Position numbers and translations under genes: made by a program
Shown here: in pieces, positions 40,507 to 53,221 of the stretch
Layout of the letters: every line of letters begins with the position of its first letter
How positions within the stretch are numbered: position 1 is the stretch's first letter
Source: Acidimicrobiia bacterium
Lineage (GTDB): Bacteria > Actinomycetota > Acidimicrobiia > Spongiisociales > ZC4RG35
NCBI GenBank assembly: GCA_025928935.1
Contig: JAICNB010000003.1
Coordinates: 10,802 to 74,801 of the forward strand
Length of the DNA: 64,000 bases
Reading direction: 5' to 3'
Notes under the pieces: generated by a model
Told to the model about the DNA's origin: nothing
Databases searched by the model: none
The model's input: the letters and a program-made list of their open reading frames with translations, nothing else

Positions 40507-42360
40507 TCATTCCCCGTTGATTCCCAGAGCCTCTTCGGCGGCATCGAGGGTCTGTCCCCCGGCGACCACGGGGGCGAAGAGGTCGCCATAGCGTTGGAGG
40601 CGATCCCAGAGGTCGACGACGGTCACGTCCCCGTTGGCCACCTCCCCGACTTCGGACCAGGTGAGCGGCGCCGAGACCGGGGCCCCGGGTCGAGGACGCA
40701 CCGAATAGGCGGAGGCCACGGTCTGCCCCGACGCATTCCGGTTGTGGTCGACGAACACCTTGCCCTTCCGCTTCGGCTTGTCCCATTCCATGGTCAGGTC
40801 GGCCGGGTTGGCCGCAGCGAGGTAGTTGCCCACCTCCCCCACGAAACGTCGAACCCGGGCGTAGTCATGCACCGGGTCGAGGGGGACATAGACATGAAGC
40901 CCCCGTGAGCCGGACAATTTGGGGTACCCGGAGAGCCCTAGCTGCCTCAAGGCCACTTCGAGCAGATGTGCCCCTGCTACCACCTGATCCCAGGTCGAGC
41001 CCTCGGCCGGGTCGAAGTCGAAGATGGCGTAATCGGGGTATTCCAGCCTCCCCTCCCTGGAGTGGAAGGGATGGGTCTCGATGCACCCCATGTTGGCGAA
41101 CCACATCAAGGCTTCGATGCTGTCGGCGACCAGGAAGTCGATGATCCCGCCCTGGCTGTCCGAGACGACGGGCGTCGTGCGCATCCATTCCGGCTGATGA
41201 CCCGGGGCCCGCTTCTCGTAGAAGGAGGGGCCGTCTATCCCCTCCGGGTACCTGCTCATCGAGATGGGCCGTCCCTGGAGATGCGGCAGCAGGACGGGAG
41301 CAACGGACGCGTAGTACTGGATGACATCTCCCTTGGTCAACCCCTCGCCGGGGAAGTAGACCTTGTCCAGGTTGGTGAGGCGGAGAGGGCGATCCAGCCC
41401 GACCGGTCTGAAGCCGTCGCCTTCCTTGACGGCTGTCAGCGGAGTGGGGAACGGCGCGTCGACGCTGGCAAGGGGCCTACCCGCAGTGTCATTGCCGGAT
41501 TCGGCTTCGATGCGTGCCCGCGCCTCCTCCCAGATCCGGTCGTGGCTCTCCAGGTCGCGGGCCTCCGATATGAGGATCATCGAGACTCCGGCCGCGCCGG
41601 CCGCCTCGATCAGGGGGCCGACCCGCAGGGTCCCTTCGCCATAGGCGATGTGCCTGATCTCACCACCCGCGCCAAACTCGTTGTCGGAGAACTGGGTCTG
41701 CAGTGGGGCGATCATCCAGCCGGGGAACTGGCCCTGGATGAACGAGAACACCGAAGCGAATGCCTCCTTCGTGGTCAGCCCACCTCCGGTCATGGCGTGG
41801 ACATGAGCCCAGTCGACCACAGGTCGAACGAAGGAGTATTCCGAAGCCAGCTGTGCGATGTCGCCCAGGCTGCCAAACGACCTGTTGTTGCCCGCGGTCT
41901 CCAATCCCATCCCGACGCCGAGCGACTCGACCTTGGAGGTCACCGCGTCGAGCCGGGATCGGATCCGGTCCATCAGGACTTCGGGCTCCTCCGAGTAGTT
42001 GGAGCCGAAATGGGCCACGATCACCGGGGCGCCCAAGGCATCGCCTAGCTTCATGGTGTGCTCGAGGGCGGCCAGCGACTGTCGCCCCCGATCCTCCTCG
42101 GGGAGGGTCAGCCCAGCGAAGTACGGGGCGTGCACCGACAGGCGGAGGTCCCGCTCGGCGGCGAGCCGGCCAAACGCCTCACACCGCTTCTCCTTCCAGG
42201 GGAAGCCCTCTACGAAGGGCAGCTCCAGGGCGCGATGCCCCTTCGCCACCAGCCCGTCCAGGAACTCCTCGTCTGTCACCCCGTCGGGCGGGAGCCCGGA
42301 TATCCCGAAGCGGATGCTGCTCACGTCATCGACGGTATCTGAACCCGGGGTTGACAGCAC
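40507..42360 (-). CDS. fusion protein: endonuclease IV-like (AP endonuclease 2 TIM barrel) domain + LigD-type primase-polymerase domain
   Basis: The N-terminal half matches Nfo metal-site blocks (HAPYFAGL, VAHFGS, GLETAGN, VDWAHVHA, RHIAYGEG, LISEA). The C-terminal half matches LigD PolDom (LTNLDKVYFP, DFDP, SGSRGLHVYVP, KVFVDHNRNASGQT, YSVRP). Confidence 0.8.
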   Translation of the reverse strand: MLSTPGSDTVDDVSSIRFGISGLPPDGVTDEEFLDGLVAKGHRALELPFVEGFPWKEKRCEAFGRLAAERDLRLSVHAPYFAGLTLPEEDRGRQSLAALEHTMKLGDALGAPVIVAHFGSNYSEEPEVLMDRIRSRLDAVTSKVESLGVGMGLETAGNNRSFGSLGDIAQLASEYSFVRPVVDWAHVHAMTGGGLTTKEAFASVFSFIQGQFPGWMIAPLQTQFSDNEFGAGGEIRHIAYGEGTLRVGPLIEAAGAAGVSMILISEARDLESHDRIWEEARARIEAESGNDTAGRPLASVDAPFPTPLTAVKEGDGFRPVGLDRPLRLTNLDKVYFPGEGLTKGDVIQYYASVAPVLLPHLQGRPISMSRYPEGIDGPSFYEKRAPGHQPEWMRTTPVVSDSQGGIIDFLVADSIEALMWFANMGCIETHPFHSREGRLEYPDYAIFDFDPAEGSTWDQVVAGAHLLEVALRQLGLSGYPKLSGSRGLHVYVPLDPVHDYARVRRFVGEVGNYLAAANPADLTMEWDKPKRKGKVFVDHNRNASGQTVASAYSVRPRPGAPVSAPLTWSEVGEVANGDVTVVDLWDRLQRYGDLFAPVVAGGQTLDAAEEALGINGE

Positions 42361-44577: not shown

Positions 44578-45390
44578 CTACCCGCTGTAGTGGGGCTCGT
44601 CGAGCTCCGCTGGTGTGTCCGGGATCCGAACCCGGGGAGCCGGGTCACCAATCCCGCTCCGGAAGGCCGAGGCCACTACCGCGAGCAGGACGGCAGTGAT
44701 GAGGCCGGCCACCGGACCGCCTGTGACCGTCGTCGCCACGGCCAGAACGGCGATCTGGCCGACGACGGCCACCACCCGGCTCGCCGGGCGGAACCGCTCG
44801 ATGCGACGATGGAGCTCACCTAGGTCGGCCGGGGACCGAACCCACGCTGCAGGCAACACCGCCAACCCACGTAACAGGCCGAACATGGTGACGATGGCCA
44901 GAGCCAGCAGCGGCTCGCCGGTGGCCGCGGCTACCACCACCATGAGATAGACACTCGCCGACATGACGTAGGTGGCCACGCCGACGCCGAGCTGCCAGCC
45001 GAACCCCATCCCGTAGACCCAGGACCGATAACGATCCAGCCAGCTTCTCTCCACCTGACGAGGGTTGGCAGGGAGATGGAATCCGCCCACCTTCAGGTCG
45101 GAGGCCAAGGTGATGACCCCGGCCAGCAGGACCAGGCCAGCCGATGCCGTAGCCGAGAGCCCAAGGCTCCCGACCGCCACAGCCCCGAGCGCGGCGACCG
45201 AGCCCAGCGTCAGGCCGCCGAGCAGCGAACCGGCCACGAACCAACTCACCGTCGCCCAGTAGCGATGCCCTCGGCCCGCCTCGGACAGGGGGGTGATCGA
45301 GGAGAGCATCGATACGCCACAGGGAGACCAGGTGGAGCGAAACGCCGCCACCAAGGCGATCCCGACTGCGGTCCAGGCCATCAGGTCCAT
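44578..45390 (-). CDS. polytopic membrane protein, family uncertain (possibly DsbD/CcdA-like superfamily)
   Basis: ~6 predicted TM helices, with a WSPCGVSML motif in the first helix. No confident family call. Confidence 0.45.
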   Translation of the reverse strand: MDLMAWTAVGIALVAAFRSTWSPCGVSMLSSITPLSEAGRGHRYWATVSWFVAGSLLGGLTLGSVAALGAVAVGSLGLSATASAGLVLLAGVITLASDLKVGGFHLPANPRQVERSWLDRYRSWVYGMGFGWQLGVGVATYVMSASVYLMVVVAAATGEPLLALAIVTMFGLLRGLAVLPAAWVRSPADLGELHRRIERFRPASRVVAVVGQIAVLAVATTVTGGPVAGLITAVLLAVVASAFRSGIGDPAPRVRIPDTPAELDEPHYSG

Positions 45391-45468
45391 CGCTGACCAC
45401 CCTAGTGCCGTATCCGTTGGGCCAGCGAAGGGGAGTGGCACGACGTGGCCGGTACCCTTTCATCATTC

Positions 45469-45541
45469 GGGTCTCTAGCTCAATTGGTAGAGCAGCGGGC
45501 TTTTAACCCGTTGGTTGTGGGTTCGAGTCCCACGGGACCCA
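45469..45541 (+). tRNA. tRNA-Lys (anticodon UUU)
   Basis: Cloverleaf GGGTCTC/TAGCTCAATTGGTAGAGC/AGCGGGCTTTTAACCCGTT/.../GTGGGTTCGAGTCCCAC/GGGACCC+A. The anticodon loop is C-T-TTT-A-A and the T-loop is GGTTCGAGTCC. Confidence 0.9.
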
Positions 45542-45691
45542 CGGTGGAATTCCCATCTGTCGCAATGAGCGGTTCACTTCTCATTTGGTTGGTCGGCGAC
45601 ACGGCTGCAAAGAACAGTCATCCGTTTCGATGGCTGGAATCGAAGTAGTGGGTGTCGGCACAGAGCGTGCCGGAAAAGGAGAAACACTCAC

Positions 45692-46345
45692 ATGAGAAAC
45701 CGATCGAAAATGGTTCTCGCATCGGCCCTGCTCGCCGTGGCGGCCGTGGCCTGCGGAGACGGGGCCGAGGATGCGACCACCACGACCCAAGCCGAGGCGA
45801 CCGAGACAACCGAAGCACAGGAGGCCACCACCACGACCTCAGCCGAGGTCACCTCGACCACCGAGGCGGAGATGACGACGACCACCCCGGCGAACGAAGA
45901 CACCGTTCTCGACGTGGCCGCGGGGAACGAGGACTTCTCCACGCTCGCCGCCGCAGTCGAGGCCGCCGGTCTCCAGGAGGCGCTGAGTGATCCTGAGGCC
46001 ACGCTGACCGTCTTCGCCCCGACCAATGAGGCGTTCGATGCCGCCCTGCAATCCCTGGGTCTGACCGCCGAGGAGCTGCTGGCAGACACCGAGACGCTCA
46101 CCGCCATCCTCACCTACCACGTGCTGGGCAACACTGTCACCTCCACCGACATCATCAGTGCCGGCTCGGAGGAGATCCCCGTGGACACACTGTCCGGGGA
46201 GGAGCTGGTGGTGGTCGTCGGGGACGACGGCGCGGTCGGGTTCGCCGACCAGGCCGCATCCGTCGCCGCCGCGGACATCGAAGCGTCCAATGGCATCATC
46301 CACGCCATCGACGCCGTGCTGCTCCCGCCATCACTGTCCAGCTGA
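45692..46345 (+). CDS. fasciclin (FAS1) domain lipoprotein
   Basis: AAGGAG lies 8 nt upstream of the ATG. Lipobox LAVAAVACG and a Thr/Glu-rich linker precede the FAS1 pattern (FSTLAAAVEAAGL...LTVFAPTNEAF...ILTYHVL...NGIIHAIDAVLLP). Confidence 0.85.
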   Translation: MRNRSKMVLASALLAVAAVACGDGAEDATTTTQAEATETTEAQEATTTTSAEVTSTTEAEMTTTTPANEDTVLDVAAGNEDFSTLAAAVEAAGLQEALSDPEATLTVFAPTNEAFDAALQSLGLTAEELLADTETLTAILTYHVLGNTVTSTDIISAGSEEIPVDTLSGEELVVVVGDDGAVGFADQAASVAAADIEASNGIIHAIDAVLLPPSLSS

Positions 46346-46358
46346 TCTCGCCGGCTAC

Positions 46359-46391
46359 GACAACGGACCGCGTTCGACGCGGTCCGTTGTC
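46359..46391. terminator. stem-loop terminator between convergent genes
   Basis: Perfect 14-bp stem GACAACGGACCGCG / CGCGGTCCGTTGTC with loop TTCGA. Confidence 0.75.
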
Positions 46392-46464
46392 GTGTGGATG
46401 CCCGGCGCGAAACGACAGCAAGATCCTGATGGGAACATTGACCGCGAGCGAACGACGCCTCGGC

Positions 46465-47016
46465 TCAAGGACTGAGGTCGGCCAGGGACCGAGCCAATCG
46501 TCTCATGCCGCTCCGGATCCGGCTCTTCACCGTGCCCTCGGGCACACCGAGTCGCTCCGCCACCGCCACATAGCTCAAGCCGCTGAGATAGGCGAGGGAG
46601 ATCGCCTCACGTTCCCCTTCGGGGAGGCCTTGGATCTCCTCCCGGACCGTCCTCGACAGTTCACGCGTCCACACCTCGCCCTCCACGTCGATTGGAGGAG
46701 TTGGTTCCGGTGGTCGCTGTTCTCGATTCGAGCGGGCCACCTCGGAGCGCACGACGTCGATAGCCCTGCGATGAGCGATGGTGGTGAGGAAGCCACTCAA
46801 GGAGCCTCGGGCCGGGTCGTACTTCCCGGGTTCGCTCCAAAGCGTGAGGAAAGTGTCCTGAACCACATCCTCGGCAAGGGTGTGGTCCCTGACCACCCGG
46901 CGGGCTGTGCTGCGAACCAGTGGCGTGAACTCCTCGACGACGCTGCGAATCGCTCGCTCGTCCCCCCGGGCGAGAGCCTCGGCGAGGTGCGATCCCCCCC
47001 GACCCGTCTGACTCAC
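46465..47016 (-). CDS. ECF-type RNA polymerase sigma factor, SigK-like
   Basis: Region 2 (DVVQDTFLTLWSEPGKYDPARGSLSGFLTTIAHRRAIDVVRSE..NREQR) closely parallels the mycobacterial SigK block (…[41 protein letters not shown]). Region 4 is LSYVAVAERLGVPEGTVKSRIRSGMRRL. Confidence 0.85.
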   Translation of the reverse strand: MSQTGRGGSHLAEALARGDERAIRSVVEEFTPLVRSTARRVVRDHTLAEDVVQDTFLTLWSEPGKYDPARGSLSGFLTTIAHRRAIDVVRSEVARSNREQRPPEPTPPIDVEGEVWTRELSRTVREEIQGLPEGEREAISLAYLSGLSYVAVAERLGVPEGTVKSRIRSGMRRLARSLADLSP

Positions 47017-47120
47017 CGAGAGGGTCCCTCCGGCATCCCCTGCGATTATATGAGCCGCTCGGTTGCTGGAGAGCCACCTCAGACACGGCTATATGCTCTC
47101 TCGAGATTGGCGAGGCGTCG

Positions 47121-48113
47121 GTGGGACAAGGAATAACAGAGACACATCTCGCCGTGGCGTCGATCGCAACGGCGGGAGACTCCGGGGGCCTCTACCGGCT
47201 GGTTGCTCGCCTCATGGACGAGGGGACACCGCTGGAGGCTGTGCTCTTCGACGTGCTACTCCGGGTCGAGCAAGAAGTAGGCCATCGCTGGCAGCGCGGG
47301 GAGTACCTGGTTGCCGAGGAGCACGCGGTCACGGCCACGATCGAAACCGTGGTCTCACTACTCGCGGGATCGTTGGATCAACCTCTGGAGGGCAGTCACG
47401 TCGTGGTTGCCACAGCGGAAGGCGATTCCCATTCGCTGCCGGCGCGGGCAGCAGCCGCCAACCTGTTGTTCAATGGGTTTCGCACCAACTTCCTGGGGGC
47501 GAACGTGCTCTCCTCGGACCTCGAAGAATTCCTCGTCGACGAGAAACCCGACGCACTGGTGCTGTCCTCGGCCATGGCGTCCCATCTGCTCGGAGCACGA
47601 GCCGGTATCGAAGCCGCACACACGGCCGGCGTCCCGGTGCTGGTCGGCGGGCGCGGCTTCGGTGAGCACGGCCGGTGGGCGTCGGTCCTCGGTGCGGACG
47701 CCTGGGCATCGACACCGAGAGATGTAGTTGCGGTGCTGCGCAGTTGGGAGCCCGACCCGATCGCGGCGGAGGCAAATGCTGCGCGACGAACTCCGGAGCT
47801 GATGGAATTGATCGAGCGTCGGTCTGAGGTGATGGCGAGAGCCGAAGCGGAGTGGACCGCCAGGGCGCCGGACCTGGACCGGCGAGTGGTCAGAGCGGAG
47901 CTCGATATCTCGATCCGCTCTCTGGAAGCTTCCCTCTTGGTCGGTGAGCCGGCGCCGCTTGCGGAAGTCCTTCACTGGCAGGCTCAGGCACTCCCGTCGC
48001 ACGGGATCGACCAGCCATCCACCATTCCCGACGCGATCGCCGCCGCCCTCGGATCGGATCTCCAAGGGGCGGCGACGATGCTGGGGTTTGCCCGCGGGGT
48101 AGCGGGCGAATGA
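47121..48113 (+). CDS. cobalamin (B12)-binding domain protein, CarH-like sensor module without DNA-binding domain
   Basis: The helical cap carries W57-x9-E67-H68 (HRWQRGEYLVAEEH). The Rossmann B12 domain carries VVVATAEGDSHSLP (DxH, His104) and ...PDALVLSSAM...VPVLVGGRGF. A ~125-aa helical C-terminal extension has unknown function. No MerR HTH is present. Confidence 0.75.
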   Translation: MGQGITETHLAVASIATAGDSGGLYRLVARLMDEGTPLEAVLFDVLLRVEQEVGHRWQRGEYLVAEEHAVTATIETVVSLLAGSLDQPLEGSHVVVATAEGDSHSLPARAAAANLLFNGFRTNFLGANVLSSDLEEFLVDEKPDALVLSSAMASHLLGARAGIEAAHTAGVPVLVGGRGFGEHGRWASVLGADAWASTPRDVVAVLRSWEPDPIAAEANAARRTPELMELIERRSEVMARAEAEWTARAPDLDRRVVRAELDISIRSLEASLLVGEPAPLAEVLHWQAQALPSHGIDQPSTIPDAIAAALGSDLQGAATMLGFARGVAGE

Positions 48114-48117
48114 GGGC

Positions 48118-48363
48118 TCAGCCCACTCGGGCGGGCACCGGTTGCCGGTCTGCAGACCGGACGAAGAGCCGGCTGATCAGCCAGAGCCCGGCCAGACCGA
48201 CCAAGCCGTACACGATGCGGGTAGCGGCGTTGGTCTCACCGAACTCGAGTCCGAAGATCGCTGCGACCAGATCGAACTCGGCCAAAGCGACCAGACCCCA
48301 GTTGATCGCTCCGATGCCGGCGAGGAGCCGGGCAGCGACGTCCATTCCGTTCATTTTCTGCAC
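48118..48363 (-). CDS. DUF378 family small membrane protein
   Basis: 81 aa with LLAGIGAINWGLVALAEFDLVAAIFG...IVYGLVGLAGL, the typical DUF378 pattern. Confidence 0.75.
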   Translation of the reverse strand: MQKMNGMDVAARLLAGIGAINWGLVALAEFDLVAAIFGLEFGETNAATRIVYGLVGLAGLWLISRLFVRSADRQPVPARVG

Positions 48364-48541
48364 CTTTCACTCATGAGAAGGCCATTTCCTTACTCATCAC
48401 CTGTCATTCGGAGCAGGAAGCGACGACGGATCACAGCTTTCCGGAGGGATGAGGTCAGGGACCACGGTCACCGCATGGTCACAGCTGGGAACAGCACCCC
48501 ACACGACAGCAAGTCAGACGCCGACTGGCGAGGAGTTCCGA

Positions 48542-48988
48542 TCAGGCGACCGCGGCCTCGACAAGTGCGACCACCTTCCTCTCGACCGCGGGGGTCCACT
48601 CGACGATGGCGAACACGACCGGCCACATCGGGCCCTCGTCGAGGTTGGCGGCATCTTCGAATCCCAGCATCGCGTAACGACCATCGAACTTGGACGCGGC
48701 CTTGAAGAAACAGATGAGCTTGCCATCGGCCCTCCCGTATGCGGGCATCCCGTACCACGTCCTGGGCAACAGGTCGGGCGCGTTCGACGCGACGAGGGCA
48801 TGGATACGTTCGGCGATGGCACGGTCGGCGTCAGGCATCTCGGCGATCGTGTCGAGCACGGCTTGCTCGTTGTCTGCCTTCTTCTGGCCGCTTCGGCCCT
48901 GCGCTTTCAACTCCTGGGCTCGTGCCCTCATCGCCGACCGCTCTGCCTCCGAGAAGCCGTCTGACCCGGATTTCTTCGTGGTAGTCAT
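48542..48988 (-). CDS. YdhG-like / DUF1801 domain protein
   Basis: ATG 48988 is preceded by AGGAGG. The 148-aa product contains ...WYGMPAYG..GKLICFFKAASKF..RYAMLGF... The remainder of the 485-aa track ORF is antisense to the MFS gene and not protein-like. Confidence 0.7.
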   Translation of the reverse strand: MTTTKKSGSDGFSEAERSAMRARAQELKAQGRSGQKKADNEQAVLDTIAEMPDADRAIAERIHALVASNAPDLLPRTWYGMPAYGRADGKLICFFKAASKFDGRYAMLGFEDAANLDEGPMWPVVFAIVEWTPAVERKVVALVEAAVA

Positions 48989-49396: not shown

Positions 49397-50875
49397 GTGA
49401 GGTCCACCACCGAAGCCGAGACCGTCGATTACTCGCGCAAGTGGTACGTCCTCGTCGCCGTGGGGACGAGCATCCTCCTCGCCACGATCGACGGATCGAT
49501 CGTCAATGTCGCCCTTCCCACGATGCGGGCCGACTTCGGCACCTCGTTCAACGTGATCCAGTGGGTCGCACTCGCCTATCTGCTCACCATGGCCACTCTC
49601 ACCCTGGGGGTGGGACGTCTTGGCGACGTCCTCGGCAAGAAGCGCATCTTCCTGTTGGGCTTCGCGGTGTTCACTGCAGCCTCGGTTCTCTGCGGTCTCG
49701 CACCGAGCATCGAGCTGCTCATCGTCTTCAGGGTGATCCAGGCGGTAGGGGGCACCATGATGCTCGCCCTCGGAGCTTCGATCCTCGTCGACGCCTTCCC
49801 GCCCCGCGAACGTGGCAAGGCACTGGGATGGATGGGTACCGCGGTGTCGGTGGGGGTCATCACCGGGCCTGTTGTCGGCGGCCTCCTGATCTCCGCCTTC
49901 GACTGGCAGGCCATCTTCTTCGTCAACGTCCCGATTGGCATCATCGGGCTCTGGTTGGCGGCCCGAACGATCCCAGACCTCCTTCCCATCCCCGGGCAAC
50001 GCATGGATTACATCGGCGCCGGTCTCCTCTCGCTCACACTGCTGGGAGTCTCCCTCGCCCTCACCTTGGGTCAGAGCCGGGGCTTCACCTCTCCTGAGAT
50101 CCTCGGTCTCTTCGCCCTGGCCCTGGTGGCCCTCGTCGCCTTTGTGATGCTCGAGCTCCGGCTGGCCAGCCCCATGATCGATCTCAGAACCTTCCGGGAG
50201 CCGCTGTTGTCGGTGAGCGTCATCACCGGCTATGCCACGTTCGTCTCCGCCTCGGCAACCTTCTTCCTGCTTCCCTTCTACCTCGAGGGGGTGCTTGGCT
50301 TCGGCGTGCGGGAGGTCGGCCTACTCCTCGGTGTCACTCCCCTGGCCCTGGGTATCACCTCACCGCTCTCCGGAGCATTGTCCGACCGGATCGGGGTGCG
50401 CCGGCTCACCCTGGCCGGACTGGTCATCCTGACGTTGGCGTTCGCAGGGTTCCGTCTCATCGACGTCGACACCTCGGTGCCGATGTTCCTGGCCCTGGTG
50501 ATCCCGGTGGGCATCGGGATGGGTGTTTTCCAGTCGCCCAACAACAGCGCCATCATGAGCTCCGTCCCCCGCGAGTACTCGGGTGTGGCCAGCGGGATCC
50601 TCTCCCTGACCCGTCTCCTCGGGCAGATCAGCGGGATCGCGGTGCTGGGCTCGGTCTGGGCTGCGCGGGTCGCCGCCCAGGTCGGCGGTCTCGAAGGTGG
50701 GGATGCGGCCACGGCGCCTGATCACGTTCAGGTGGCGGCCCTACGCGACACGTTCACCATCGCCGCATTGATCCTCGCCGTCGCCACGCTGCTCGGGTTC
50801 TGGGGGTTGAGGGAGGAGTCGCGGAGGAAGCAACCCGCCCTGGGGGCTGCGGAGCCTCAGATCAGCGCGGAGTAG
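49397..50875 (+). CDS. MFS transporter, DHA2 (EmrB/QacA, 14-TM) type
   Basis: ATIDGSIVNVALPTM..., GRLGDVLGKKRIF (motif A-like), and about 14 hydrophobic segments. Confidence 0.85.
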   Translation: MRSTTEAETVDYSRKWYVLVAVGTSILLATIDGSIVNVALPTMRADFGTSFNVIQWVALAYLLTMATLTLGVGRLGDVLGKKRIFLLGFAVFTAASVLCGLAPSIELLIVFRVIQAVGGTMMLALGASILVDAFPPRERGKALGWMGTAVSVGVITGPVVGGLLISAFDWQAIFFVNVPIGIIGLWLAARTIPDLLPIPGQRMDYIGAGLLSLTLLGVSLALTLGQSRGFTSPEILGLFALALVALVAFVMLELRLASPMIDLRTFREPLLSVSVITGYATFVSASATFFLLPFYLEGVLGFGVREVGLLLGVTPLALGITSPLSGALSDRIGVRRLTLAGLVILTLAFAGFRLIDVDTSVPMFLALVIPVGIGMGVFQSPNNSAIMSSVPREYSGVASGILSLTRLLGQISGIAVLGSVWAARVAAQVGGLEGGDAATAPDHVQVAALRDTFTIAALILAVATLLGFWGLREESRRKQPALGAAEPQISAE

Positions 50876-52131
50876 TCGGCTTCGAGACGGCTCCAGTCGA
50901 GCATGGAGCTGAACCCGCCCAGACTCAATGTCGAAGCGAGTGACGGGATGTCGTCGAACGGGGGTGGGATGAATCGGGGCTGTTCCACCAGGCCCTCCTC
51001 CTCCAACTGGTGCAACGTCACCATGTCGAGCAGGTCGACTTTCCCACAGAAGAGGAGCGGGATGCGGTGTGCCCGGCCCAGATAGATCGCGAGCCGGACG
51101 TAGAGGAAGGTCAGAATGAGGCCCTTGCCGTAACCCAGGTCTTTGGTGAATGGGCCGGCATCCGGGAGGCTCCCCCGGAAGATGCGCACCGTGGTCGCCC
51201 AAGCCTCATCCTCGGTGAGCCCATCGGTTCGAAACAGCTCGAACACCTCGACGAACGATGCCCCCTCTGAGGCCGCCCTGATCCCTTCGATCCGGTGCAT
51301 CAGCTTGGCCAACCGGCGGGGATGGCTGCGCAGGTTCAGCATCTCGGTCAACACCGCCAACCCCTCCTGGGTCACGGTGGTGCGAGGCGCGGCCTTCCCG
51401 AGGAAGGTGCATACCGGTTGGGAGAGCCCGTTCTGGGTGGTCCCGATGTGCACCCACGCCTCGTGGGTCTCGAGGAGGTGAAGATCGCGCTGGGAGAACA
51501 TCCGGTCTTCCCGGACCTTGATGTAGTCGCTTCCTGCCGCGGCGTCGGCAGCGATCCCGTCATCGGGCCTCACCTCCACCATGCCTTTGCCCATCGAGCC
51601 GTCACAGGCCGCTTGCAGGATGCCGACTGCTTCGGTCCCGGGGATGTTGCGGTCGTCCATGTTCGACTCCTCGACGGTGTCGAGGCCTTCCAACACCTTC
51701 CTCATCTGCTGCCCCAGGTCGGCGATGGTGGGCCCACCGGCGTGGAACACGTCCTGCGGCGTCCCGTAGAGGAGAGCCGCGATCTGGGAGAACTCCGGAG
51801 TGCCCCGCGCCTCGAGGAGATCCACGGTGAGGCGGAATTGCTCGCACATGAACTTCATCAGGGTGCCCGCCGGCGACACCGGCCCGAGCTTTCCCTGGAT
51901 GTCCGATTCGACCTTTCGCAGCTGCTCCCGCATGGCGTCGGCGTCGAAGCCCCGCTCCCGGGCCTCGTAATAAGCCCGATCCACGGACGGCAGCTCCTTG
52001 AACTTGGAGGCGTAGAACTTCTCTTTGATCGAGTCGTCCCAGTTGATCGAATTGAGCACCTTGATCGGCCGCTGTGCCTCGACGATGCGGTCACTCAGGT
52101 CCTTGATGGTCTGCCGGTATTGCTCGCTCAC
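50857..52131 (-). CDS. DUF1704 / QEGLA-motif protein (flavohemoglobin expression-modulating, Tyr/Phe carboxypeptidase-like)
   Basis: Contains VTQEGLAVLTE and HEAWVHIGT (HExxH-like). The start is uncertain: GTG 52131 is preferred, while ATG 52254 would overlap the divergent HAD start. Confidence 0.65.
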   Translation of the reverse strand: MSEQYRQTIKDLSDRIVEAQRPIKVLNSINWDDSIKEKFYASKFKELPSVDRAYYEARERGFDADAMREQLRKVESDIQGKLGPVSPAGTLMKFMCEQFRLTVDLLEARGTPEFSQIAALLYGTPQDVFHAGGPTIADLGQQMRKVLEGLDTVEESNMDDRNIPGTEAVGILQAACDGSMGKGMVEVRPDDGIAADAAAGSDYIKVREDRMFSQRDLHLLETHEAWVHIGTTQNGLSQPVCTFLGKAAPRTTVTQEGLAVLTEMLNLRSHPRRLAKLMHRIEGIRAASEGASFVEVFELFRTDGLTEDEAWATTVRIFRGSLPDAGPFTKDLGYGKGLILTFLYVRLAIYLGRAHRIPLLFCGKVDLLDMVTLHQLEEEGLVEQPRFIPPPFDDIPSLASTLSLGGFSSMLDWSRLEADYSALI

Positions 52132-52252
52132 GGGGGCGGGCAATCTATCTCGGCGACCCCACCTCCTGCGCAGCGCCTCTCGATGGTTGGCCGGCGCCGG
52201 GCCAGTCGGCCCGTTGCCACCTGTGGAAAACCGGATAGCCTCGGATGTGGTC

Positions 52253-53221
52253 ATGGGACGCCAGCTCTTCCCCCAGAACGTCATCGCCATGATCTGGGAC
52301 TTCGACAAGACCCTGATCCCGGGCAACATGCAGGGCCCACTCTTCCGTCATTTCGAGGTCGACGAGGGGGCTTTCTGGGACGAGGTCGACGGGCTCGAGT
52401 CGTGGTATCGGGCCCGTGGGTCTGACCTGATCGCCGCTGAGCGCCTCTACCTCGATCACATCCTCACTTACGTGCGTGATGGGCGAATGGCCGGTCTGAG
52501 TAACCACCTTCTGCGATCTCTGGGAGCCGAGATCGGGTTCTACCTGGGGATGCCCGACTTCCTCGAGCTGGTCCGCAAGGAAGTCACGTCGGAGCCACGT
52601 TTCGCCGAGCACCAGATCCAGGTCGAGCATTACATCGTCTCCACCGGGCTGAGGCAGATGATCCTCGGCTCGGCGGTTGCGCCCTATGTCGACGACGTGT
52701 GGGCCTGTGAGTTCACGGAGCTGATCGCCCCGCCCGGCTACCCGGAGCAGCAGAGCCGGCTCTTCTCGCCCGACGGGGAGGTCCGCCAGCTCATCTACAC
52801 CATCGACAACACGACCAAGACGCGGGCGCTCTTCGAGATCAACAAGGGGACCAACAAGAACCCCAGCATCGACGTCAACGCCAAGATGGCGAGAGAGGAC
52901 CGCCGGGTCCCCTTCCAGAACATGATCTACATCGCCGACGGTCCCTCGGACGTGCCTGTCTTCTCGGTGGTCGAGGCAAACGGCGGGAGGACCTATGCGG
53001 TGTACCGGCCCGGCTCCCAGGCCGAGTTCGAGCAGGCGGCGCGGCTCCTCGAGCAGGATCGGGTGGACGCCTTCGGTGAAGCCGACTACTCGGAGGGGTC
53101 CCATACCGCCATGTGGCTGACCCACGCCGTGGAGGGCATCGCCCGTCGCATCGTCCGCGATCGTCAGGAAACTCTCAGCGAGCGAGTCGGCCAGCCACCC
53201 CGACATGTCGCCGACGACTGA
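52253..53221 (+). CDS. HAD superfamily hydrolase-like protein
   Basis: Motif I IWDFDKTL (DxDxT) and a late YIADGPSDVP (motif IV-like). It has a large cap insertion. ATG 52253 is chosen as start. Confidence 0.65.
   Translation: MGRQLFPQNVIAMIWDFDKTLIPGNMQGPLFRHFEVDEGAFWDEVDGLESWYRARGSDLIAAERLYLDHILTYVRDGRMAGLSNHLLRSLGAEIGFYLGMPDFLELVRKEVTSEPRFAEHQIQVEHYIVSTGLRQMILGSAVAPYVDDVWACEFTELIAPPGYPEQQSRLFSPDGEVRQLIYTIDNTTKTRALFEINKGTNKNPSIDVNAKMAREDRRVPFQNMIYIADGPSDVPVFSVVEANGGRTYAVYRPGSQAEFEQAARLLEQDRVDAFGEADYSEGSHTAMWLTHAVEGIARRIVRDRQETLSERVGQPPRHVADD

Follow-up and report, generated by a model that had tools for sequence, protein, structure and literature searches.

A standalone photocobilin divergent from a SigK-like ECF sigma factor in Acidimicrobiia: a candidate light-input module

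How is a SigK-like extracytoplasmic function (ECF) sigma factor controlled when no gene for the anti-sigma factor RskA follows its own? This question is raised by a locus in a 64-kb stretch of an Acidimicrobiia bacterium genome (contig JAICNB010000003.1; below, the window, to which coordinates refer unless a locus is named), in which the sigma gene is divergent from, and separated by 104 bp from, the gene of a B12-binding protein (Table 1). The original prediction, made from the sequence alone, had singled out this pair, and its coordinates for both genes and its motif codons proved exact on recheck. It had also noted the missing RskA, and the sigma stop codon is indeed followed by 119 bp in which nothing is encoded and then by the end of a convergent fasciclin gene. 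Here, we find that the B12-binding protein belongs, by all sequence and modelled-fold criteria, to the photocobilin family, and that its gene is linked to the sigma gene across relatives. We propose that the two form a light-input module in which the photocobilin would control the SigK/RpoE-type ECF sigma factor by direct protein contact, a claim that we judge to be evenly poised between true and false.

The B12-binding part of the protein was recognized by Pfam above gathering scores (PF02607, residues 17-81, E = 7.8e-11; PF02310, residues 93-193, E = 5.2e-15). The Wx9EH signature described for the helical cap is present (W57, TGG at 47289; E67-H68, CAC at 47322), as is the lower-ligand histidine of the Rossmann domain (D102-x-H104, CAT at 47430), and W57, E67, H68, D102 and H104, together with the C-terminal W286-Q287, are invariant among 33 homologues. 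The Pfam scan returned no helix-turn-helix (HTH) family and the structural model starts with the B12 cap. Domains and motifs thus bear out the proposed CarH-type B12 photoreceptor module devoid of a DNA-binding domain. The C-terminal extension of ~125 aa, previously considered to be of unknown function, turned out to be photoglobin, a bilin-binding five-helix domain, as judged from Foldseek and profile matches. The AlphaFold2 model, based on the alignment of the 33 homologues, is a single compact body (pLDDT 94.9, pTM 0.92) in which the globin-like domain packs against the two B12 domains, and its top full-length Foldseek matches in the PDB are 8J2W and 8J2X, the photocobilin of Saccharothrix syringae (SasPcob) in its dark and light states, and 8J2Y, an Acidimicrobiaceae photocobilin domain (TM 0.84 over ~330 columns, 30-33% identity); the matches to CarH and LitR cover just the first 200 residues. 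Searching the PDB sequences with a profile likewise retrieved 8J2W across residues 14-317 (E = 4.5e-56). Among NCBIfam models, CarH scored best, with 52 bits against a cut-off of 400 and over profile positions 111-261 only. More than 200 full-length homologues (~330 aa) were found, nearly all of them in Acidimicrobiia.

The combination of photoglobin and B12 domains was predicted as a "hub" by Schneider et al. 2022 (PMC8717448), and Zhang et al. 2024 (PMC10979010) showed that photoglobin binds biliverdin beside the corrin. The window protein shares with SasPcob the three-domain architecture, the length, the W/EH/His motifs and the D-ring tryptophan, at ~33% identity: the adenosylcobalamin (AdoCbl) ligands W61, E71-H72 and H108 of SasPcob (PMC10979010) correspond to the invariant W57, E67-H68 and H104, and its bilin D-ring Trp296 corresponds to the invariant W286. 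We infer that the window protein binds AdoCbl through the Wx9EH cap and His104. Bilin binding by the photoglobin domain is plausible but not assured, because the key bilin-contact residue, Asp270 in SasPcob, is replaced by Glu260 (among 23 sequences, at least 90% have Glu). Where AbPcob has His instead, biliverdin binding is poor (PMC10979010). Neither SasPcob nor the window protein has an output domain, and action through protein-protein contact is therefore expected. Zhang et al. call the function of standalone photocobilins "less clear" and regard regulation of a partner through protein-protein contact as possible, with light-dependent modulation of a partner enzyme by such contact (PMC10979010). 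The genomic partners differ: the SasPcob gene adjoins SpoIIE/STAS genes, whereas the clade of the window protein is linked to a SigK-like ECF sigma factor and its regulon. ECF sigmas, heliorhodopsin and the present clade of Acidimicrobiia all go unmentioned in PMC8717448 and PMC10979010.

A scan for photocobilin loci, restricted to one genome per species, returned 80 loci. Where the photocobilin was at least 47% identical and the full 5.5-kb upstream flank was present, an orthologue of the sigma factor lay upstream in 28 of 34 loci, and in the 41 loci with both genes (sigma identity 50-61%) every pair is divergent, so that the divergent synteny, put forward as a test in the original prediction, is strongly conserved. 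The two genes lie within 300 bp of each other in 25 of these 41 pairs and 0.6-5.2 kb apart in the others. In the separated pairs, the gap is filled by a plus-strand operon encoding a flavin amine oxidase, DUF1365, cyclopropane-fatty-acid (CFA) synthase, DUF4397 and sortase, with the photocobilin gene last; genes for short-chain dehydrogenase/reductase (SDR), SRPBCC, DUF1295, DUF2867 and MpaB-like proteins are found nearby. Among more distant paralogues (40-47% identity), the sigma gene was linked in 1 of 15 loci. The closest relatives (75-78% identity) keep a four-gene core of fasciclin, sigma, photocobilin and DUF378, none with an anti-sigma gene; more widely, fasciclin is conserved beside the sigma gene in the relatives' loci L081-L086 and L167, and DUF378 stands beside the photocobilin gene in L002, L024, L031, L034 and L081-L086. 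In 11 Acidimicrobiia loci, the gene directly 3' of that for the photocobilin encodes a heliorhodopsin (PF18761, E = 1e-100). None of the regulon genes of relatives (amine oxidase, DUF1365, CMAS, heliorhodopsin, DUF1295, DUF2867 and others) was found in the window by tblastn.

The sigma factor contains Sigma70_r2 and r4_2 as its only Pfam domains. Its top NCBIfam match is SigK (PRK09646), at 145 bits and thus below the cut-off of 226, and in the PDB Mycobacterium tuberculosis SigK (4NQW, E = 1.5e-23) ranks first and Rhodobacter RpoE (2Q1Z, E = 5e-16) second. In ECF19/SigK proteins, a conserved cysteine pair forms a redox-sensing disulphide (PMC7826278); the 183-aa window protein contains no cysteines, and the SigK redox disulphide is therefore impossible. 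By its sequence, the window sigma factor is SigK/RpoE-like, yet it lacks three marks of SigK, namely RskA, the cysteine pair and a score above the curated cut-off. Compared with M. tuberculosis SigK, it also lacks an autoregulatory promoter. The likeness to the M. tuberculosis SigK-RskA system (ECF19) extends to a predicted target from the same domain family as MPT70/MPT83 (fasciclin) and, in relatives of the window, to an RskA (RskA_C, zf-HC2) encoded 3' of the sigma gene, which the window does not have. Furthermore, the genes next to sigK in M. tuberculosis, Rv0446c-Rv0449c (DUF1295, CFA synthase, DUF1365 and amine oxidase), recur in the relatives.

A tblastn search of the 64-kb window with 9 anti-sigmas from relatives detected no RskA/zf-HC2 homologue; among 30 window proteins analysed with Pfam (29 genes, 29.9-63.6 kb), there was neither an anti-sigma nor STAS, SpoIIE, heme oxygenase or a further photoreceptor. 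The photocobilin itself has no zf-HC2/RskA match in Pfam, and its B12 and globin domains cover the whole of its fold. Three states can be distinguished among the relatives. In 10 loci, the sigma gene is accompanied by a full RskA of 235-249 aa, comprising a zinc anti-sigma domain (ASD), a membrane segment and RskA_C, and the sigma promoter is of the SigK type, scoring 9-29 with the position weight matrix (PWM) described below. In about 11 loci, a soluble ASD-only remnant of 70-79 aa with the HxxxCxxC motif is found; the cases confirmed by an open reading frame (ORF) of ~72 aa have no SigK-type promoter at the sigma gene (PWM up to 9), and L030 and L032 have weak matches (PWM 12-13.5). The remaining 12 loci and the window have no anti-sigma and no clear SigK-type sigma promoter (PWM up to ~12). 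Loss of the autoregulatory promoter thus tracks loss of RskA, and the photocobilin occurs in every one of these states, a partner that stays constant as the canonical anti-sigma decays. The notion that the B12 protein simply took the place of RskA did not survive this comparison: it coexists with a full RskA or a zinc ASD in ~21 related loci and therefore did not simply replace RskA. In a metagenome scan that started from the sigma factor, ASD-only orthologues adjoined a photocobilin gene (L088, L090), and sigmas of less than ~47% identity were mostly accompanied by RskA and had no B12 protein.

The stand-alone zinc ASDs of 70-77 aa that follow the sigma gene (zf-HC2, E = 1.5e-6; L006:1070-1282, L028:5114-5332, L032:5011-5244, L039:5111-5329, L040:1903-2121 and L053:5134-5352) correspond to RskA cut just before the membrane segment. 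In most ASD-only loci, loss of the sensor part accompanies loss of the autoregulatory promoter; L032 retains a weak match (PWM 12).

The promoter motif was derived from the intergenic regions of relatives, and the resulting PWM was run over the whole window. In relatives, the motif reads TCATCCG-N16-(T/C)CCGAATAGG, summarized as TCATCCG-N16-CCGAAT, and exact CATCC-N14-18-CGAAT matches occur 43 times in their loci, 34 of them with N17. These -35 CATCC and -10 CGAAT elements resemble the mycobacterial SigK consensus reportedly described by Veyrier 2008. In relatives, the motif precedes the sigma gene (in full-RskA loci), the amine-oxidase operon and the DUF4397-sortase, SRPBCC, heliorhodopsin (8 loci) and DUF378 genes; in L002 (PWM 18.1) and L020 (PWM 25.8), the photocobilin gene has a SigK-type promoter of its own. 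The ATG often lies ~8 nt past the -10 element, which suggests that SigK-type promoters give leaderless transcripts. The window contains no exact CATCC-N14-18-CGAAT match, but just two sites score above 14 by PWM, each one base off the exact motif and detected by PWM only, and these precede fasciclin and DUF378, which border the module on either side. The site before fasciclin is also found in L086, and in L081 and L084 despite inversion of the gene; sites orthologous to that before DUF378 have PWM scores of 20-30 in L081, L084, L085, L002, L024, L031 and L034; and the window sites as a set are conserved across L081, L084, L085 and L086. The fasciclin and DUF378 genes are thus the predicted targets of the sigma factor. 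No SigK-type promoter was detected at the sigma or photocobilin gene of the window (PWM scores of -5 and -7).

The heliorhodopsin promoters are located at L010:7181-7207, L011:6995-7021, L016:7019-7045, L029:6964-6990, L033:6983-7009, L035:3937-3963, L041:7007-7033 and L045:1058-1084. In these eight loci, an ATG lies ~8 nt past the -10 element; it is that of the heliorhodopsin gene or, in L035 and L041, of an unannotated ORF that takes the equivalent place 3' of the photocobilin gene. The presence of a SigK-type promoter before heliorhodopsin implies that its expression would be controlled by an ECF sigma factor; no sigma-dependent heliorhodopsin promoter was found in the heliorhodopsin literature searched.

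The metagenome scan that started from the sigma factor also revealed two more gene arrangements. L094 encodes, divergently from a sigK-rskA pair, a 271-aa protein that combines an HTH_17, a B12-binding_2 and a B12-binding domain, with the Wx9EH and DxHxxG motifs (L094:477-1292, minus strand). This protein is CarH-like, with an excisionase-type HTH replacing MerR, and occupies the position that the photocobilin has in the window clade. In L157, a 356-aa protein starts at the sigma stop codon, that is, in the anti-sigma position, and is followed by genes for DUF2878, CFA synthase, DUF1365, amine oxidase and DUF1295. It falls into a family with ~17 members, which we call family 2 (members carry P numbers); one is named from a Planctomycetota metagenome-assembled genome. 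The C-terminal 200 residues of family 2 form a CarH-type B12 module (hhalign E = 6.5e-32; rmsd to 8J2W 1.6 A), and the N-terminal five-helix domain aligns with photoglobin, on the invariant tryptophan, in profile-profile comparison (hhalign E = 4.6e-6, 86%) and weakly in single-sequence comparison (probability 8.8%). Owing to the permuted order of the domains, Foldseek did not confirm the photoglobin domain of family 2; the predicted structure forms a compact body (pTM 0.89). By profile and model, family 2 thus appears to be a photoglobin-B12 protein with the domain order reversed relative to the photocobilin.

The gene contexts of family 2 vary. In P0127, the sigma gene is followed by photoglobin-B12 with overlapping stop and start codons, and then by DUF378 and SOUL genes; in L171, the sigma gene, a 70-aa ORF and photoglobin-B12 all overlap; and in L167, a fasciclin-sigma-RskA cluster is divergent from photoglobin-B12, with CFA synthase, DUF1295, desaturase, amine oxidase and DUF1365 genes alongside. 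No sigma gene accompanies P0133 (L169), which lies among SpoIIE, DUF2878, SOUL and DUF2867 genes, or P0131, next to an SDR gene, and none is near P0126. Three of the four sigma contexts (L157, P0127, L171 and L167) are surrounded by DUF378 or by CFA synthase/DUF1295/amine oxidase/DUF1365 genes. In other bacteria, domain-swapped relatives hold the anti-sigma slot of related sigma factors. Taken together, the L094, family-2 and photocobilin arrangements indicate that coupling between a B12 photoreceptor module and sigma factors of this type arose in at least three gene arrangements, the B12 protein being twice in the anti-sigma position. The DUF378 protein recurs as neighbour and predicted target in Acidimicrobiia and on the unrelated P0127 contig. 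The 70-aa ORF of L171 (L171:3792-4004, plus strand) has no Pfam match and no zinc motif; its helix 'ELAAAALTLAL' resembles helix 1 of an anti-sigma domain.

Because the photocobilin has no DNA-binding domain and standalone photocobilins act through protein contact, post-translational control of the neighbouring sigma factor is the most likely mode of action, and we infer a contact with the sigma factor or with the sigma-ASD complex. In the proposed mechanism, the photocobilin would bind AdoCbl and probably, in the photoglobin domain, a linear tetrapyrrole. In the dark, the AdoCbl-bound photocobilin oligomer would hold the sigma factor or, in relatives, may instead hold the sigma factor bound to the small zinc ASD. 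Green light, through B12, or red light, through the bilin, would shift the quaternary state of the photocobilin and free the sigma factor, which could then transcribe the genes behind TCATCCG-N16-CCGAAT promoters: fasciclin and DUF378 in the window, and the amine oxidase-DUF1365-CFA synthase, SDR/SRPBCC, DUF4397-sortase and heliorhodopsin genes in relatives. In the window lineage, RskA and the autoregulatory promoter of the sigma gene would both have been lost; the gene would now be read from a housekeeping-type promoter, with the photocobilin left as the only linked regulator. A co-activator role of the photocobilin is possible by analogy, because RskA is both inhibitor and activator of SigK (PMC7509140). 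In M. kansasii, light induces the fasciclin homologues mpk70 and mpk83, and what stimulates SigK is called 'obscure' (PMC9861118); a light input to the window sigma factor would fit both. A more far-reaching version, in which the dual-chromophore photocobilin represents a new class of sigma partner that binds SigK/RpoE-type ECF sigmas, took over from RskA, occupies the anti-sigma slot in Planctomycetota-like relatives and translates green-to-red light into a photo-oxidative-stress regulon including heliorhodopsin, is offered tentatively, as less likely than not, yet far from remote.

Several observations weigh against control of the sigma factor by the photocobilin. The photocobilin has no recognisable anti-sigma domain, and the bilin-contact aspartate is a glutamate in the window protein. 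In the ~21 relatives with RskA or a zinc ASD, which could itself sense oxidants, the photocobilin is not required as the anti-sigma factor; the scan that started from the sigma factor found full-RskA loci (L093, L096) with no photocobilin gene within 3.4-7 kb; and an anti-sigma factor could be encoded outside the 64-kb window. In addition, the PWM was partly trained on the autoregulatory sites that it scores. Alternatively, the photocobilin could be a member or companion of the response to light or photo-oxidative stress that acts through protein contact on another partner (an enzyme, heliorhodopsin signalling or a PP2C/STAS switch), with the sigma factor under an unlinked anti-sigma or governed by its own level only, a reading that we regard as unlikely, though deserving real weight. 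As last gene of the SigK-dependent DUF4397-sortase operon, or behind its own SigK-type promoter (L002, L020), the photocobilin gene looks like a target in several loci; however, regulon membership is typical of anti-sigmas too, as part of a feedback loop. The heliorhodopsin gene directly 3' of the photocobilin gene in 11 loci, the RskA or ASD found beside it in many, and the SpoIIE phosphatases, rather than sigmas, that adjoin the Actinoplanes and Saccharothrix homologues (PMC10979010) also favour a companion role. Yet the window and its closest relatives, with no heliorhodopsin, enzyme or SpoIIE genes nearby, keep the sigma-photocobilin pair, and family-2 proteins sit in the anti-sigma slot, with stop/start overlap and no other anti-sigma.

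Control could also be exerted on transcription: at the shared 104-bp region, the photocobilin would assist or oppose, depending on light, an unlinked DNA-binding protein (as co-repressor or anti-repressor, by AerR/PpaA-like logic) and would set the amount of a sigma factor that is active once made. We consider this improbable, although the CarH-like HTH-B12 repressor of L094 occupies the same divergent position and the analogy with LitR-LitS would suggest that sigma transcription was ancestrally under light control. Moreover, in loci with no anti-sigma or with an ASD only, the SigK-type autoregulatory promoter of the sigma gene is gone and a sigmaA-type -10 (TATAAT here) is present, and ECF groups that lack anti-sigmas are often transcriptionally controlled (PMC7826278). 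However, the neighbourhood holds no conserved candidate for a DNA-binding partner, the 104 bp contain weak inverted repeats only and no clear operator repeat, and the family-2 genes, co-transcribed 3' of sigma, fit post-translational control better. Very improbable, in our view, is that the photocobilin senses cobalamin availability or redox state instead of light, or serves in corrinoid methyl transfer. Automatic annotation (JGI) labels many homologues 'methanogenic corrinoid protein MtbC1', and redox state can be reported by the B12-binding AerR and PpaA (PMC10734443). Against this, the NCBIfam matches to MtbC/MtgC reach only 20-34 bits, far under the cut-offs of 215-370 bits, with CarH the best match, and the MtbC1 identity was rejected; the invariant Wx9EH is a photoreceptor signature, the full-length fold matches solved photoreceptors, and no methyltransferase partner is found in any of ~90 loci. 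Direct light-gated control of the sigma factor by the photocobilin is, at even odds, the best reading.

Light-responsive ECF systems (LitR-LitS, CarQ-CarR and RpoE-ChrR) and photocobilins are already known. LitR and CarH are B12-dependent MerR repressors of light-induced genes, acting in Streptomyces through the ECF sigma factor LitS, and in LitR-LitS the B12 photoreceptor gene lies beside an ECF sigma gene, as in the window. According to Foldseek, CarH and LitR share with the window protein the Wx9EH and His-on AdoCbl module, but they have a MerR HTH, whereas the window protein has an extra bilin domain and, lacking MerR or any other HTH domain, cannot repress by binding DNA. The HTH-B12 protein beside the related sigK-rskA pair in L094 represents a LitR-LitS-type design. 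AerR/PpaA anti-repressors, B12 proteins that act on DNA-bound CrtJ/PpsR, resemble the window protein in logic only. As the domain of class I anti-sigmas (ASD/zf-HC2/RskA_N, with HxxxCxxC) is absent from the photocobilin, sigma binding would make it a new kind of partner. RpoE-ChrR of Rhodobacter sphaeroides (ECF11), which contains the second-best solved relative of the window sigma factor, has a core singlet-oxygen regulon of SDR, amine oxidase, a hypothetical protein, lipoprotein and CFA synthase (PMC5507510), matching the genes between sigma and photocobilin in relatives. The RpoE -35 consensus TGATCC (PMC5507510), which the -35 of the motif from relatives resembles, equals the -35 element of the window DUF378 promoter, whereas the -10 differs (CGTA in RpoE, CGAAT in the window clade). 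ChrR, with its zinc ASD and cupin, is absent here, and the RpoE-ChrR signal is singlet oxygen itself, whereas a dedicated photoreceptor is proposed for the window system.

In the literature searched, we found no link between photoglobin or photocobilin and ECF sigma factors. If direct binding of the sigma factor by the photocobilin is true, it would be a categorically new anti-sigma mechanism, would give standalone photocobilins, structurally defined in 2024, their first physiological function, and would make light a natural input of SigK-type regulons; that function would come from a conserved partner open to test, namely one small sigma factor whose promoter is short and recognisable. It would also join three strands that now stand apart: the signal for SigK-type regulons, among them the M. 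kansasii homologues of MPT70/83 that are induced by light; the RpoE-ChrR response to singlet oxygen; and the regulation of heliorhodopsin, the role of which is still debated. An orthogonal ECF sigma factor released by light would be an attractive optogenetic transcription switch for green to red light.

Table 1. Features of the module and other window genes mentioned in the text
Feature	Position	Strand	Basis or remark
617-aa protein	40507-42360	-	AP_endonuc_2 + LigD primase-polymerase domain
287-aa multi-pass membrane protein	44578-45441	-	no Pfam match
tRNA-Lys(TTT)	45469-45542	+	Rfam
Predicted SigK-type promoter, AGTCATCCG-N16-ATCGAAG, ~40 nt 5' of fasciclin start	45616..45651	+	PWM 15.6, best in window
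Fasciclin gene, secreted or lipoprotein, 217 aa	45692..46345	+	PF02469, E = 6.5e-28
Stem-loop, 17-bp perfect stem	46357..46393 (about)		fold z-score -3.2
ECF sigma factor, SigK/RpoE-like, 183 aa	46465..47016	-	Sigma70_r2 + r4_2, SigK best match
Divergent control region, 104 bp	47017..47120		sigmaA-type -10 for sigma, -10-like for photocobilin
Standalone photocobilin, 330 aa	47121..48113	+	Pfam, AlphaFold2, Foldseek, profile vs 8J2W
Photocobilin, four-helix B12 cap	47169-47363	+	
Photocobilin, Rossmann B12 domain	47397-47699	+	
Photocobilin, photoglobin domain	~47754-48110	+	
DUF378 small membrane protein, 81 aa	48118..48363	-	PF04070, E = 1.7e-19
Predicted SigK-type promoter, TGTGATCCG-N16-TCCGAATGA, ~35 nt 5' of DUF378	48400..48435	-	PWM 14.3, second-best
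490-aa bacterial MATCAP homologue	50857-52329	-	PF08014, E = 1e-110

The 104-bp control region contains the two reported TATAT(G) boxes, as TATATG at 47047-47052 and 47090-47095. On its own, minus strand, the sigma gene has a perfect TATAAT (47050->47045), a sigmaA-type -10, and the photocobilin gene has a -10-like TATGCT (47092-47097), the TAnnnT element of which aligns with CTAGCCT in relatives and is kept ~25-35 nt 5' of the start in 25 aligned loci. A consensus sigma-70 promoter scan of 45400-48600 made no call, because the promoters here have no E. coli-like -35 element. A repeat search for an operator in the 104 bp gave weak inverted repeats only, and an Rfam scan of the entire window found tRNA-Lys only and no cobalamin riboswitch. 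Of the terminator reported after the sigma gene, the hairpin, ~72 nt past the stop codon, is present and the U tract is not; a consensus intrinsic-terminator scan of 45400-48600 accordingly made no call, the hairpin being missed because it lacks the U tract. From its position and fold, the stem-loop is likely to be a bidirectional terminator between the convergent fasciclin and sigma genes.

Between the tRNA-Lys gene and the fasciclin promoter predicted 3' of it lie 74 nt. Relatives L081 and L084 have fasciclin in inverted orientation and carry additional genes, DUF5995 among them, on the tRNA side; the left border of the module therefore appears to be a rearrangement point beside tRNA-Lys. 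Elsewhere in the window, the 617-aa protein joins an N-terminal half of the AP_endonuc_2 type (xylose-isomerase-like TIM barrel) to a LigD primase-polymerase domain in one chain, an unusual-looking fusion for a component of non-homologous end joining. The homologue of MATCAP, a family of microtubule-associated tyrosine carboxypeptidases, is kept at the same position in L081 and L083. Finally, the 287-aa membrane protein, encoded between a glyoxalase gene and the tRNA gene, has a counterpart of 67% identity in L018, next to the same MarR and glyoxalase genes.

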